Made by a program: the position numbers and the translations under genes. Source: Patescibacteria group bacterium (GTDB lineage: Bacteria; Patescibacteriota; Minisyncoccia; Phycocordibacterales; Phycocordibacteraceae). Taken from it: 64,000 nt of DNA. Shown here piece by piece: positions 48,310 through 52,368 of the stretch. The stretch spans positions 49,004 to 113,003 of the forward strand of contig JAGWWK010000001.1 in the NCBI GenBank assembly GCA_018970425.1. The letters run 5' to 3'. The notes below the pieces were generated by a model, which saw nothing but the letters and a program-made list of their open reading frames with translations, was not told the origin of the DNA and did not search any database. How positions within the stretch are numbered: position 1 is the first letter of the stretch; each line of letters starts with the position of its first letter.

Positions 48310-48753
48310 CTATTGGCAGGGATGTCCGTATTTTTGCTTCAAGCTGGCTAGCTTTTTATACTCTGCATTTCTTTGTTTCACAAGCTCGTTGTATTTTTGT
48401 TCCCACCATGCTTCATTTTCGTCGCCGTAATTCCCTATTCTCCCTTCGTTAGCAATTCGTATACCTTTCTCAAGATCGTCAATTCGAGCTTGAACTCTGC
48501 CAATTTCAGCTCTTCCCCAAAGGATTTCTTGTACGTTGGGGTCACCTGGATTAATGTTGCAGTCAGCGGTCTGCGGCAGATTGTTACGGCCTCCAGCTAT
48601 GTCATCACTCGTACCTGACATTTGCAGGATATCGTCTATGATGCCTGCATTGTATGCGTACGCTAGAAGGACCAGAGTAAAAGTGCCTGCAAACAGTGCA
48701 ATGGGTGCTATTGCGCCCCCTTCGGCAGGGCCTTCTGCGGTGATTGCGCTCAT
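48310..48753 (-). CDS. Hypothetical membrane-anchored secreted protein (147 aa)
   Basis: N-terminal TM, then a polar domain ending in a coiled-coil-like tail. Confidence 0.45.
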   Translation of the reverse strand: MSAITAEGPAEGGAIAPIALFAGTFTLVLLAYAYNAGIIDDILQMSGTSDDIAGGRNNLPQTADCNINPGDPNVQEILWGRAEIGRVQARIDDLEKGIRIANEGRIGNYGDENEAWWEQKYNELVKQRNAEYKKLASLKQKYGHPCQ

Positions 48754-48810: not shown

Positions 48811-49839
48811 TTACTCTCGAGTAGGAGCGTCTACCAGCGCCGTTTCTACCCCCATAGAGGCGCCCGCGATCTTCAGGACGTCCTTATCTATCTTTTTGAA
48901 CTCTTTTTCGGTCGCATTAAAGTGGTTCACCACCGTGCCAAGCGCATTGCCGAGCTTTGTCTGGTACTCGCGGTATGCCCCAAGATGCTTTGAAAGCTCA
49001 CCCACGTTCTTTACTACGTCTTGTATCTTTTCCTCTATTTGCAAAGACTTGAGTCCCTGGAGCACGGTCTGGAGGTACGCAAGGAACGATGTGGGTGAGA
49101 CAATAATCACCTTTTTACTGAACGCATACTCAATAAGGTCTCGCGTATTCGTCTTTACCGTGCCCACTTGGTTAATGAGGAGGTCGTAGTAAATACCTTC
49201 AGACGGGATAAACATAAAGGCAAAATCCACCGTCCCCTCCGCCGGACGCACATACTTACTGGTCTCGTCGATCCGGTTCTTTAGGTCTCGCTTAAACGCT
49301 TGCTCAAGCTGCGCGCGCTCAGTGGGCTCGCGACTTTCAAGAATGCGGTTGTAGTTTTCAAGACTAAACTTACTATCGATGGGAATGATCTTGTCTTTCA
49401 CAAAGACAACGGCGTCGACGATTTCTCCATTCGGAAAACCGTACTGCATCTCAAAGGAGCCCGGTGGCATCACATTTTGAAGCACAGTCTCCAGGTAATA
49501 CTCGCCTAAAATGCCTCGCTGCTTAGGGTTTTTCAGAATGTCTTGCAGGTTCTGAAGCTGGTCGGCAAACGACACCACTTGCCTGTTGGTCTCATCGAGC
49601 TTCGTGAGGCCTTCCGTCACGTCGCGCACCACGCGGAGCGTGTCAGAAAGTTGCCGCTGAACCGTGTCTTGCACGCGATTAGTAGACTCGCCCACCGCGC
49701 GCTGTAGCTCTGCTATTCGCTCGCTCATGAGATGGAGTCCCTCACCGCCGGCTTGGGGCTTTTGGTTGACAATTACGTACGCGACAAACCCGACGAGGCC
49801 AATGAGTATGATGAGGAGCAGTACGAGAAATAGTTCCAT
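48811..49839 (-). CDS. rmuC: DNA recombination protein RmuC
   Basis: N-terminal TM, coiled coil, C-terminal RmuC nuclease-like region (DSKFSLENY, FMFIPSEGIYY). TATAAT sits 6 nt upstream of the ATG at 49839. Confidence 0.8.
   Translation of the reverse strand: MELFLVLLLIILIGLVGFVAYVIVNQKPQAGGEGLHLMSERIAELQRAVGESTNRVQDTVQRQLSDTLRVVRDVTEGLTKLDETNRQVVSFADQLQNLQDILKNPKQRGILGEYYLETVLQNVMPPGSFEMQYGFPNGEIVDAVVFVKDKIIPIDSKFSLENYNRILESREPTERAQLEQAFKRDLKNRIDETSKYVRPAEGTVDFAFMFIPSEGIYYDLLINQVGTVKTNTRDLIEYAFSKKVIIVSPTSFLAYLQTVLQGLKSLQIEEKIQDVVKNVGELSKHLGAYREYQTKLGNALGTVVNHFNATEKEFKKIDKDVLKIAGASMGVETALVDAPTRE
49697..49754. repeat. 58-bp direct repeat copy 1, inside rmuC codons
   Basis: 56/58 identical to 50241..50298. 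Confidence 0.8.
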
Positions 49840-49845
49840 AGTGCA

Positions 49846-49851
49846 ATTATA
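49846..49851 (-). promoter_or_regulatory. -10 box TATAAT 6 nt upstream of the rmuC ATG
   Basis: Minus strand reads TATAAT-tgcact-ATG. Confidence 0.45.
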
Positions 49852-49869
49852 ACGTAGCAGTGTGGAGTA

Positions 49870-49898
49870 TTGACAAATTACTAATTGTAAATTATAAT
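49870..49898 (+). promoter_or_regulatory. Consensus sigma70 promoter TTGACA-N17-TATAAT, 6 nt upstream of the ATG at 49905
   Basis: Both hexamers perfect and spacer 17 nt, read directly. Confidence 0.6.
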
Positions 49899-49904
49899 GT
49901 TTGC

Positions 49905-50213
49905 ATGTATACAAATCCCGAAGCAAAAAAGAACGCTACTGAGCGCATTACAAATGCTGACTTTTTGAAACGAAGTGGGCTCACAGTCATTGCAGTCTCC
50001 GTGCTTACCGGTATCGGTGCACTCTCCGAAATTTTTGAAGCGACGGATTTGATTGATTTCACTGTAGCTCTTGGTCTCAAAACGAGTCCTATCGACCTAG
50101 AGTATATAGCTGGTGGTGCATCTGTTTTAGGCATTCTCATCGGTGGGCTTATAATGCGGTTCGCATCTAACGGCGCACGCAGATGGAAACAAGTGCGTGA
50201 CAGCTACAATTAG
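49905..50213 (+). CDS. Small hypothetical membrane protein (102 aa)
   Basis: Two hydrophobic helices. Consensus promoter immediately upstream. A hairpin GACGGAC...GTCCGTC follows the stop. Confidence 0.45.
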   Translation: MYTNPEAKKNATERITNADFLKRSGLTVIAVSVLTGIGALSEIFEATDLIDFTVALGLKTSPIDLEYIAGGASVLGILIGGLIMRFASNGARRWKQVRDSYN

Positions 50214-50240
50214 GACGGACGCGCATGTCGAGTCCGTCAT

Positions 50241-50298
50241 GCGCGCTGTAGCTCTGCTATTCGCTCGCTCATGAGCTGGAGTCCTTCACCGCCGGCTT
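50241..50298. repeat. 58-bp direct repeat copy 2, intergenic, preceded by a hairpin at 50214..50238
   Basis: gcgcgctgtagctctgctattcgctcgctcatgagCtggagtccTtcaccgccggctt. Confidence 0.8.
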
Positions 50299-50353
50299 AG
50301 TGATGAGGAGCACTAAAAGAGCGATATCCATAGATGCGATTGTAGCATCATGC

Positions 50354-50359
50354 TACACT
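50354..50359 (+). promoter_or_regulatory. -10 box TACACT 6 nt upstream of the ATG at 50366
   Basis: TACACT-tgctgc-ATG. Confidence 0.4.
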
Positions 50360-50365
50360 TGCTGC

Positions 50366-50818
50366 ATGTTGCAGGATCAAATAGGCGCCGACCTTGTCGC
50401 CGCAATGAAAGCAAAAGACGCGCTCCGCGTAGAAGTTTTTCGCGGCCTAAAGGCGGCGTTCGTAAATGAGCTCGTCGCTACAAAGCGCATGCCGACTGAT
50501 CCTCTACCTGACGAGGATGCTGTCACGGTACTTAAACGCGAGGTTAAAAAGCGCAAGGAGGCCGCTGACGCGTTTCGCGGCGGTAACCGAGCTGAACTTG
50601 CCGCTAAGGAAGACGCCGAACGAGTGATCCTAGAGGCCTACCTTCCGGAAACAATGCCGAAGGCCGAGATACTCAAGTTTGCACTGGCAAAGAAGCTCGA
50701 GCTCGGCCTCACTGATAAAAAAGAAATGGGTAAGTTTATGGGCCTTATCATGAAGGAGCTGGGCGGAAAAGCAGATGGTGCCGATGTCCGCGATGTCGTG
50801 GCAGGACTTTTTCTCTAG
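50366..50818 (+). CDS. GatB/YqeY domain protein
   Basis: KDALRVEVFRGLKAA...REVKKRKEAADAFRGGNRAELAAKEDAE...MGKFMGLIMKELGGKADG. Confidence 0.8.
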   Translation: MLQDQIGADLVAAMKAKDALRVEVFRGLKAAFVNELVATKRMPTDPLPDEDAVTVLKREVKKRKEAADAFRGGNRAELAAKEDAERVILEAYLPETMPKAEILKFALAKKLELGLTDKKEMGKFMGLIMKELGGKADGADVRDVVAGLFL

Positions 50819-50877
50819 TACAAGCATCTACTCTGTCGTTCCGTCGTTCGATTCCCTGCATAGTGCCAGTGGGTACT

Positions 50878-50900
50878 AAAAACCAGAGATGCTCTGGTTT
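50878..50900 (-). terminator. Rho-independent terminator downstream of tRNA-Glu
   Basis: Minus strand reads AAACCAGAG-cat-CTCTGGTTT, followed by TTTAG. Confidence 0.5.
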
Positions 50901-50910
50901 AGTGAATCCA

Positions 50911-50982
50911 TGACCCTACAGGGAATCGAACCCTGGTTTTAGCCTTGAGAAGGCCACGTCCTAGCCGCTAGACGATAGGGCC
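50911..50982 (-). tRNA. tRNA-Glu (anticodon CUC), CCA not encoded
   Basis: Folded by hand. Acceptor GGCCCTA/TAGGGTC, D-arm GTCT/GGAC, anticodon stem TGGCC/GGCTA with loop TTCTCAA, T-arm CAGGG-TTCGATT-CCCTG. Confidence 0.8.
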
Positions 50983-51078
50983 GCAGTTTTTTTATAGCAC
51001 AAACTGGGAGCTGTTGCCATAGGACTTGAAGAAAAGCCGAGGAATGTGAGTGTCTGTTTGTTAATGGCTACGAAGCCG

Positions 51079-52368
51079 CTACCGCACAAGCCACTCAGCG
51101 TCCTGGCGGCAGACGAGCTCTTTCGCACGCTCGGGCTCTGCCATCAGCGCCTTGACGACGCGTTCCATCCGCATGCCTTGCGAACCCTTCGCGAGCACAA
51201 TGTCCCCTGCCCCAACCATGCGCTCAAGGTGCTGCGCCGCGTCGAGTGCCGTATCAAATGAAAGCACGCTCTCTGGCGCCATACCTGAAGCGCGAGCGGC
51301 ATCCGCTATTTTCCGCGCGCGTACACCAACCGTGAGCACTATGTCAGCGGACCGCGCAGCGAGTGCGCCGGCTTTCTCATGTTCATCCGGGGAGTACGCG
51401 CCAAGTTCAAGCATGTCGGCAAGTACTGCAATGCGCCGTCCCGTGTGCGGAATTTCGGCAAGCGTTTCAAGCGCAGCAGTTACCGCCGCGGGCGAGGCGT
51501 TGTAAGTGTCGTCAATCAGCATACTGCCGTGCACGCCTTCAATGAGACGCATACGGCTCGGTGGCTCCTCGTACTCTGCTAGGCCACGCGCCGCGACCTC
51601 GAGTGGCACTTCAGCGGCAAGGGCTCCTGCTATGGCACCAAGGGCAGCGTACGCATGTCCGCGGCCAGTGACTCCCGGGAGTACGACATGCACCTTTTCC
51701 CCAAGAAATGAAACATCAAATGAAATACCGCGCGGAAGCCTGTCCTCCGTGAGTGTTTTAAACCGGGACGCACGCACATGCGCTTTGGGATGAAACCCGT
51801 AGGTCAGGCGATCGACGCCGTCCGCGAGGGGTACGGCTATAACAGATTCGTCATCAGCGTTAACGACTGCAACCCCTCCAGGGAGGAGCCATGAAAGCGG
51901 CGCCAACTCCTCGGCGCGTACCGCCTCGGGTGAATCATAGAACTCAACATGGACTGGTACCGCGGGAAAGCGAGTCGCCACTACGATGCGCGGTCGGAGC
52001 CACGCAAGCGATGTGGTGATGTCGCCTGGTCGGTCAGCGCCTACCTCGACAATCAGCCACTCTGGGTACGGCGCCCGGATAAGGACGAGGAGCGCGCCCT
52101 CAATCATATTGCGGATCCAGCGGAGCGGATTGCCCCACCCGTTCGGGACTCCGAGAACTGCGAGCGGTACCCCAATGTCTGAATTAAAGCTTTTCTGGCT
52201 CTTCCGCACGAAGAACTTTGGCTTCATAGTGGCGAAGAGCGCGTCCTTGGTGCTTGTTTTGCCCACCGAGCCAGTAACGAGTATGATGCGTGGCTGGTAC
52301 CTGCGCACAACCGCACGCGCAAGCATGGTCATAACTGTAACTACTGCGCGCCTGATTAGATCTTTCAT
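51079..52368 (-). CDS. murF: UDP-MurNAc-tripeptide:D-Ala-D-Ala ligase MurF
   Basis: Mur ligase P-loop GSVGKTSTKD and C-terminal IDDTYNASPAAV. Confidence 0.9.
   Translation of the reverse strand: MKDLIRRAVVTVMTMLARAVVRRYQPRIILVTGSVGKTSTKDALFATMKPKFFVRKSQKSFNSDIGVPLAVLGVPNGWGNPLRWIRNMIEGALLVLIRAPYPEWLIVEVGADRPGDITTSLAWLRPRIVVATRFPAVPVHVEFYDSPEAVRAEELAPLSWLLPGGVAVVNADDESVIAVPLADGVDRLTYGFHPKAHVRASRFKTLTEDRLPRGISFDVSFLGEKVHVVLPGVTGRGHAYAALGAIAGALAAEVPLEVAARGLAEYEEPPSRMRLIEGVHGSMLIDDTYNASPAAVTAALETLAEIPHTGRRIAVLADMLELGAYSPDEHEKAGALAARSADIVLTVGVRARKIADAARASGMAPESVLSFDTALDAAQHLERMVGAGDIVLAKGSQGMRMERVVKALMAEPERAKELVCRQDAEWLVR

Follow-up and report, generated by a model that had tools for sequence, protein, structure and literature searches.

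The 64-kb window analyzed here, the whole 64,000-nucleotide stretch of contig JAGWWK010000001.1 from a Patescibacteria group bacterium, contains a 58-nt sequence from the 5′ part of rmuC that recurs almost unchanged in the spacer between rmuC and the divergently oriented gene yqeY. Our analysis indicates that the second copy is probably part of a 5′ remnant of rmuC, which arose when recombination brought a 492-nt segment into the first rmuC codons. A preliminary description of the locus had offered two explanations for the repeat, a trans-acting antisense regulator of rmuC or the footprint of a local duplication or recombination event. The second of these is supported by a near-identical strain, known from a metagenome contig (L166), which has an empty site in place of the segment, a single copy of the 58-mer and an uninterrupted rmuC.

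The two copies of the 58-mer, at 49697-49754 and 50241-50298, lie in the same orientation 544 nt apart (start to start) and agree at 56 of 58 positions, exactly as the preliminary description had stated. Their longest exact run in common is 35 nt. About 4e-22 matches of this quality would be expected by chance in the window, and the 35-nt core, allowing three or fewer mismatches, was found at these two sites only and at none in 100 shuffles. The pair is the sole substantial direct repeat in the 64 kb. We fetched 165 related loci for comparison, and the best match of the 58-mer to any relative is at most 72%, which means that the identity of the two copies does not come from general conservation. 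The placement of copy 1 inside rmuC, where it encodes …LHLMSERIAELQRA on the minus strand, was also described correctly, as was the position of copy 2 in the spacer before yqeY, although the distance from the end of copy 2 to the yqeY ATG (50366) is 67 nt and not 68 nt. The 58-mer is therefore real, but its description was incomplete, in that a second block of homology past a 52-nt gap and a 102-aa open reading frame (ORF) with a promoter of its own between the copies had been missed, as had the rmuC-like nature of the hairpin beside copy 2. The features of the locus are as follows.

48811-49839, minus strand: functional rmuC coding sequence, 342 aa, with an N-terminal transmembrane (TM) helix and an RmuC domain (Pfam RmuC, E = 1.4e-54)
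49697-49754, minus strand: copy 1 of the 58-mer, inside rmuC at codons ~29-48 (…AGGEGLHLMSERIAELQRA), equal to the single 58-mer of L166
49809-49820, no strand: left 12-nt direct repeat TGATGAGGAGCA, which bounds the indel and matches 50301-50312 at 12 of 12 positions
49821-50312 (equivalently 49809-50300), no strand: the 492-nt segment, present in the window and absent from L166 by blastn and three-way alignment
49821-49851, minus strand: replacement rmuC start, with TATAAT at 49846-49851, 6 nt, the ATG at 49837-49839 and then five codons
49870-49898, plus strand: predicted sigma-70 consensus promoter TTGACA-N17-TATAAT, a 12/12 match in the promoter scan
49905-50213, plus strand: small ORF without known relatives (ORFan), 102 aa, with two hydrophobic helices by hydropathy
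50214-50240, minus strand: rmuC-like stretch, formerly a "hairpin" (…M-T-D-S-T…), which continues the remnant past a 1-nt deletion
50241-50298, minus strand: copy 2 of the 58-mer, within the rmuC remnant and out of frame with the remnant ATG
50301-50331, minus strand: right copy of the 12-mer (50301-50312) and the native rmuC start (ATG at 50329-50331), matching the L166 rmuC start with one synonymous difference visible
50332-50365, no strand: ancestral rmuC-yqeY intergenic region, 34 nt here and in L166, conserved in sequence
50366-50818, plus strand: yqeY (GatB/YqeY family; Pfam YqeY, E = 9e-37), the native neighbor of the remnant, its protein identical in L166

The empty-site allele is observed directly and carries most of the argument. 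L166 is a Logan contig of 1494 bp that comes from another sequencing run, is present in two samples and was found through the exact YqeY protein. Its positions 1-597 correspond to window positions 49224-49820 at 99.67% identity and its positions 586-1494 to 50301-51206 at 99.12% (blastn). The two matches overlap by the 12-mer, which is where L166 changes over from remnant-side to copy-1-side sequence, and the contig is thus without exactly 492 nt (49821-50312) that are flanked in the window by the 12-nt direct repeat. The rmuC gene of L166 runs uninterrupted from the stub ATG into the copy 1 sequence (MDIALLVLLI joined directly to ILIGLVGFVAY…AELQRAVGEST…), with yqeY at the normal distance of 34 nt. 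Heterologous DNA between two partial copies of its target gene, together with an empty-site allele in a sister strain, is the anatomy of a recombination scar, and this anatomy can be read base by base from the alignments.

The remnant extends well beyond the 58-mer. On the minus strand it consists of a -10-like box (TGcTACAAT), an ATG at 50331, the ten codons MDIALLVLLI, a 52-nt deletion, the 58-mer, a 1-nt deletion and ~18 rmuC-like bases. Judged from these alignments, copy 2 is the best-preserved part of a degenerate rmuC 5′ remnant of ~130 nt. The homology beyond the 52-nt gap pairs 50301-50333 with 49809-49841 and takes in a -10 box and an rmuC-type ATG followed by about 10 codons. Because the 52-nt deletion shifts the frame, the remnant ORF ends after 20 codons (MDIALLVLLITKPAVKDSSS*). 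One rmuC copy is thus intact, encoding a protein 100% identical to the NCBI RmuC of a Patescibacteria metagenome-assembled genome (MAG; P0001), and the other is frameshifted and carries both deletions. Consistently, an nhmmer profile built only from the rmuC 5′ regions of relatives recovered the remnant as two separate matches, one at 50303-50368 (E = 6e-5) and one at 50235-50299 (E = 9e-8), with ~58 model positions absent between them. The same profile detected no rmuC homology deeper in the spacer, and the idea that rmuC homology runs into the small ORF on the minus strand by overprinting was dropped on this result.

The position of the stub matches the usual start of the gene. The distance from the remnant ATG (50331) to the yqeY ATG is 34 nt, and since the ATG-to-ATG spacing is 33-38 nt in the closest GTDB relatives (L001, L002, L003, L006 and L007), the stub occupies the usual rmuC start site. 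The gene calls of L083 and L084 likewise give 33 nt. In comparison, the functional rmuC start (49839) lies 492 nt farther from yqeY than the stub ATG. The preliminary description had also reported a hairpin, GACGGAC-N11-GTCCGTC, at 50214-50238 next to copy 2. The inverted repeat is present, but it is rmuC-like coding sequence, in register with rmuC of L082, L084, L001 and L004 at 14 of 18 bases and with copy 1 at 8 of 17, and the region folds no better than shuffled sequence (z = -0.71). We rejected the hairpin as a terminator or a structured RNA, given this fold score, the lack of a T-run and the lack of an Rfam family.

Across the rmuC-like copies, identity forms a sharp mosaic, with 68 of 70 positions identical in the core (12-mer plus 58-mer) versus 19 of 36 in the flanking zones (Fisher p = 5e-8). 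The two differences between the 58-mer copies amount to one change on each copy. At the first, copy 2 has CAG (Gln), as in relatives, and copy 1 and L166 have CAT (His). At the second, copy 2 has GAA, and copy 1, L166 and most relatives have GAG.

The 492-nt segment contributes a new beginning for rmuC. Its putative -10 box, its ATG and six codons join rmuC in frame at the 12-mer, and because the segment brings this replacement promoter and start codon, rmuC stays intact. The replacement start is rmuC-like but only 11/19 identical to the native start on the stub, and its -10 box (TATAAT, 49846-49851) was assigned by eye and not by the promoter scan. Between the copies there is an AT-rich region of about 60 nt. 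The consensus promoter of the ORFan and the TATAAT now used by rmuC are arranged back to back, and a consensus promoter before an ORFan is unusual in a genome of the candidate phyla radiation (CPR). Since the ORFan ATG begins 7 nt after the -10 box, its mRNA is probably leaderless.

The cargo of the segment is an orphan by every search we made. Its sole gene, the 102-aa ORFan, has no Pfam or PHROG family match, and the segment contains no integrase or recombinase. A word-index search of 5.8 billion clustered proteins returned only the ORF itself, tblastn gave no match at E < 0.5 in the 165 related loci, and no relative was found in IMG/VR. An exhaustive HMMER search of 1.84 billion representatives yielded weak candidates for remote homologs, at 27-30% identity to the repeat units of tandem-repeat proteins, including some with type IX secretion system (T9SS) tails, which we judged spurious. 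At the DNA level, the insert had no blastn match in related loci or elsewhere in the window, and the ~400 nt between the repeat blocks are without a homolog in any collection searched. The fraction of G or C at third codon positions (GC3) is atypical in the ORFan, at 0.42 versus 0.62 in rmuC and 0.56 in yqeY. No inverted repeat pairs the two segment ends, and a transposon or miniature inverted-repeat transposable element (MITE) was ruled out by this lack of terminal inverted repeats. A 9-nt perfect inverted repeat, CTAATTGTA at 49881-49889 and TACAATTAG at 50205-50213, does bracket the small ORF, with arms that fall in the promoter spacer and at the stop codon, respectively. Chance alone should yield about 0.5 such pairs over this length, and the bracketing is probably meaningless.

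The most likely mechanism is that foreign DNA carrying a diverged rmuC 5′ fragment integrated at the resident gene, by either a single (Campbell-type) crossover or homology-facilitated illegitimate recombination (HFIR). Such an event would bring in the small orphan gene for a membrane protein, together with the strong promoter that precedes it, along with the replacement rmuC promoter and start, and would leave the original start next to yqeY on a truncated, frameshifted stub that holds the second 58-mer. The near-identical core from the 12-mer to the 58-mer could then mark where the crossover took place or heteroduplex formed, or could stem from gene conversion at a later time, and the 52-nt and 1-nt deletions would reflect decay of the redundant copy. 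The preliminary description had linked the repeat to the role of rmuC as a recombination gene, a connection that looks coincidental.

Both routes have precedents. Partial lacZ duplications of 109-950 bp arose in E. coli conjugation experiments when circular molecules integrated by a single crossover, and often these were circles that had lost part of the homology (PMC3240628). As in those experiments, heterologous DNA lies here between two partial copies of the target, one functional and one truncated, and a single-copy empty-site allele exists. In contrast, the present case is natural and from an uncultivated CPR bacterium, the homology is ~125 nt and split by the 52-nt deletion, the flanks of the repeat are diverged alleles, and the circular intermediate is hypothetical. 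Displacement of the HFIR type, described in naturally transformable bacteria, has been proposed to leave gene remnants at type VI secretion system (T6SS) and Rhs loci, in T6SS effector-immunity arrays and in the orphan modules of Rhs and contact-dependent inhibition (CDI) systems (PMC5361080). The likeness lies in foreign DNA beside a homologous anchor, with the incoming version of the gene taking over and a resident remnant with short homology left alongside. However, the remnant in the window is a 5′ stub and not a 3′ tip, its cargo is one ORFan and not a toxin-immunity pair, and the locus is without an array or a sign of repeated displacement in this genome.

A third parallel is provided by elements that carry a replacement end for their target gene, such as phage 21 and e14 in icd, and islands in the 3′ ends of tRNA and tmRNA genes. 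In these elements, as at the rmuC locus, the substitute end keeps the gene intact, and the displaced end persists as a diverged partial duplicate with an identical core. Unlike them, the segment in the window has no recombinase, it replaces the 5′ end and promoter of its target, and there is no evidence of site-specific recombination.

Several points weigh against integration as described above. The direction of change rests on one empty-site contig (1.5 kb, two samples), and L166 is exactly what a window-like ancestor would leave after a deletion from one 12-mer to the other. The diverged zones of the stub are slightly more "relative-like" than copy 1. Searches of the protein clusters, JGI metagenomes, IMG/VR and related loci gave no donor sequence for either the cargo or the diverged rmuC-like ends, and no donor lineage can be named because the five next-closest relatives are about equally distant in sliding DNA identity (~70-85%). 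For this reason, an allelic replacement by an "L081-like" donor in an "L082-like" background, which the zone identities had seemed to suggest, was dropped as a firm claim; it is also undercut by L166, in which the remnant start is the native start of a sister strain. In addition, either heteroduplex repair or gene conversion has to be assumed as well to account for the sharp mosaic, the Campbell model requires a small circular or permuted donor that is hypothetical, and non-conservation is the ground for regarding copy 2 as apparently without function.

The strongest alternative follows from the first of these points. It holds that the window structure is the older one, in which HFIR brought the small ORF, its promoter and a different rmuC allele and left the native 5′ stub by yqeY, that gene conversion homogenized the core, and that L166 arose by deletion between the 12-mers, which restored an rmuC abutting yqeY. 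We regard this history as possible but less probable than insertion, and it would still make the locus a scar. The stub start zone is 80% identical to L082 versus 65% to copy 1, and the zone past the 58-mer (14/18 to L082, L084 and L001 versus 8/17 to copy 1) and the relative-like CAG of copy 2 point the same way. Deletion between short direct repeats is also mechanistically simple, and HFIR requires no circular intermediate. On the other hand, this history needs one event more than the insertion model, and that event would have had to restore exactly the arrangement of most relatives. The labels "native-like" and "foreign-like" are moreover weak, given the roughly equal DNA distances to the five closest other relatives. 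A YqeY relative closer than L082, sought in order to root the polarity, was not found besides L166. The gene order of L166 and most relatives speaks for insertion, and on balance we lean modestly toward insertion rather than deletion as the direction of change. Whichever polarity applies, the event yielded the 58-mer pair as a by-product.

The other of the two options in the preliminary description is a functional one. In this reading, copy 2 would be a trans-acting antisense element, and a plus-strand read-through RNA would lower RmuC by pairing with rmuC codons ~29-48. The geometry for this is in place. Copy 2 is complementary to the rmuC mRNA at 56 of 58 positions, the 58-mer has stayed far more intact than the sequence on either side, the plus strand carries a perfect consensus promoter upstream of it, and because no terminator-like site was found between 50213 and 50366, RNA from that promoter probably reads through copy 2 into yqeY. 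Nevertheless, we consider such a role very unlikely, as it found no positive support. Copy 2 is missing from L166, which is 99% identical, and from the 159 relatives covered by our remnant scan. The synteny comparison that had been suggested thus showed a copy that is not conserved, and its absence from close relatives is an outcome that the preliminary description had itself listed as refuting. The copy 2 region shows no fold signal, as noted above, and has no Rfam match at E < 0.05. The promoter and terminator scan revealed no transcription unit of its own flanking 50214-50300, and the ORFan promoter is ~340 nt upstream. The target would be ~85 nt inside the coding region and not at the start. 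Recency or gene conversion would account for the high identity just as well, and the differences include one per copy, as drift would give. Trans-encoded antisense small RNAs derived from gene fragments do share with copy 2 a long, near-perfect complementarity to an mRNA and a separate locus, but copy 2 is without a dedicated transcription unit, conservation or a structure signal, and is absent from a near-identical strain.

An assembly artefact, with strain variants mis-joined in the MAG or L166 a collapsed repeat, is less probable again and can largely be set aside. The insertion allele is recorded only in one NCBI MAG, and both alleles come from metagenome assemblies. However, the junctions share no more than 12 nt, too short for a join in a de Bruijn graph, and ~400 nt of unique sequence lie between them, which makes the window structure unlikely as a graph artefact. 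L166 is not a collapsed repeat because its junction is only 12 nt and it retains the 52 nt missing from the stub, together with the copy 1 variants. A collapse at the 35-nt longest exact run would yield a product unlike L166, and the stub has deletions and substitutions of its own. Finally, nothing beyond the existence of two copies favors a dispersed repeat or mobile-element family (a REP element, a MITE or the end of an insertion sequence), and its probability is negligible, given only two copies in 64 kb, no exact match of a 25-nt core in JGI metagenomes or IMG/VR, no 58-mer in the 165 related loci, no terminal inverted repeats, and a copy 1 that is ordinary rmuC coding sequence and aligns with all relatives.

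The wider junction provides context for the scar. In most of the 165 related loci, rmuC and yqeY are adjacent and divergent, with a gap that ranges from 14 to about 2800 nt, and the comparison suggests that the rmuC/yqeY junction is a hotspot for small-gene gain and loss in this group. Unrelated small ORFs with TM segments occupy the gap in L081 (564-958), L004 (3003-3938), L047, L052 and L056, and in L017 and L018 the gap holds a 230-aa multi-TM protein. None of these gaps contains an rmuC remnant, and remnants like that of the window were found in none of the 159 scanned loci, where the few matches are short intergenic palindromes. Homology of the 102-aa ORF to the small ORFs in the gaps of L081, L004 and others was considered and rejected, as no similarity was found.

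The 34-nt ancestral intergenic region has a distinctive architecture. It carries an extended -10-like box on each strand (minus, TGcTACAAT; plus, TGcTACACT). The two boxes form the inverted repeat TGTAGCA-N3-TGCTACA, and this palindromic divergent core is also present in L166 and in L082, L083 and L084, which are among the closest relatives. Because each ATG lies 6-7 nt past its -10-like box, rmuC and yqeY appear to be leaderless genes that share one palindromic promoter core, as far as motif spacing can tell. Elsewhere around the locus, a 147-aa ORF (48310-48753, minus strand) without a Pfam or PHROG match lies between rmuC and rplU, where close relatives have different genes, and is preceded by a near-consensus promoter, TTGACA-N16-TACAAT (48791-48764). 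A tRNA-Glu(CTC) gene at 50911-50982 (minus strand), just downstream of yqeY, is conserved in L166 and has no bearing on the repeat. Among the related loci, L043 (JBEBJM010000002.1) is titled as a Nitrospira sp. MAG and yet bears a Patescibacteria-type rmuC (63% identity) as well as rplU, and binning contamination is the probable reason.

The structure in the window is an ordinary kind of recombination scar and a fresh instance of a known event. By itself such a scar matters little, and the regulatory idea is unsupported. A larger significance would follow if the 492-nt unit were a recombinase-free, "self-restoring" cassette that spreads in Patescibacteria by single crossover at the rmuC 5′ end and brings its own start, or if copy 2 were a functional antisense brake, but we think it very unlikely that either holds. 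If the cassette reading were true, it would explain the recurrent unrelated small membrane-protein ORFs at the rmuC/yqeY junction, and reversible excision would be possible through the 12-nt and 58-nt repeats that have been kept; alternatively, the read-through RNA might brake rmuC by antisense. The value of the locus is more modest, and lies in a clean natural before-and-after pair, resolved to the base, in an uncultivated CPR bacterium. For annotation, it is a caution that coding sequence repeated almost perfectly in an intergenic spacer can be what is left of the former start of a neighboring gene. For the biology of these bacteria, it shows that the 5′ end of a gene can gain, or lose, an ORFan with a consensus promoter without the gene being inactivated.

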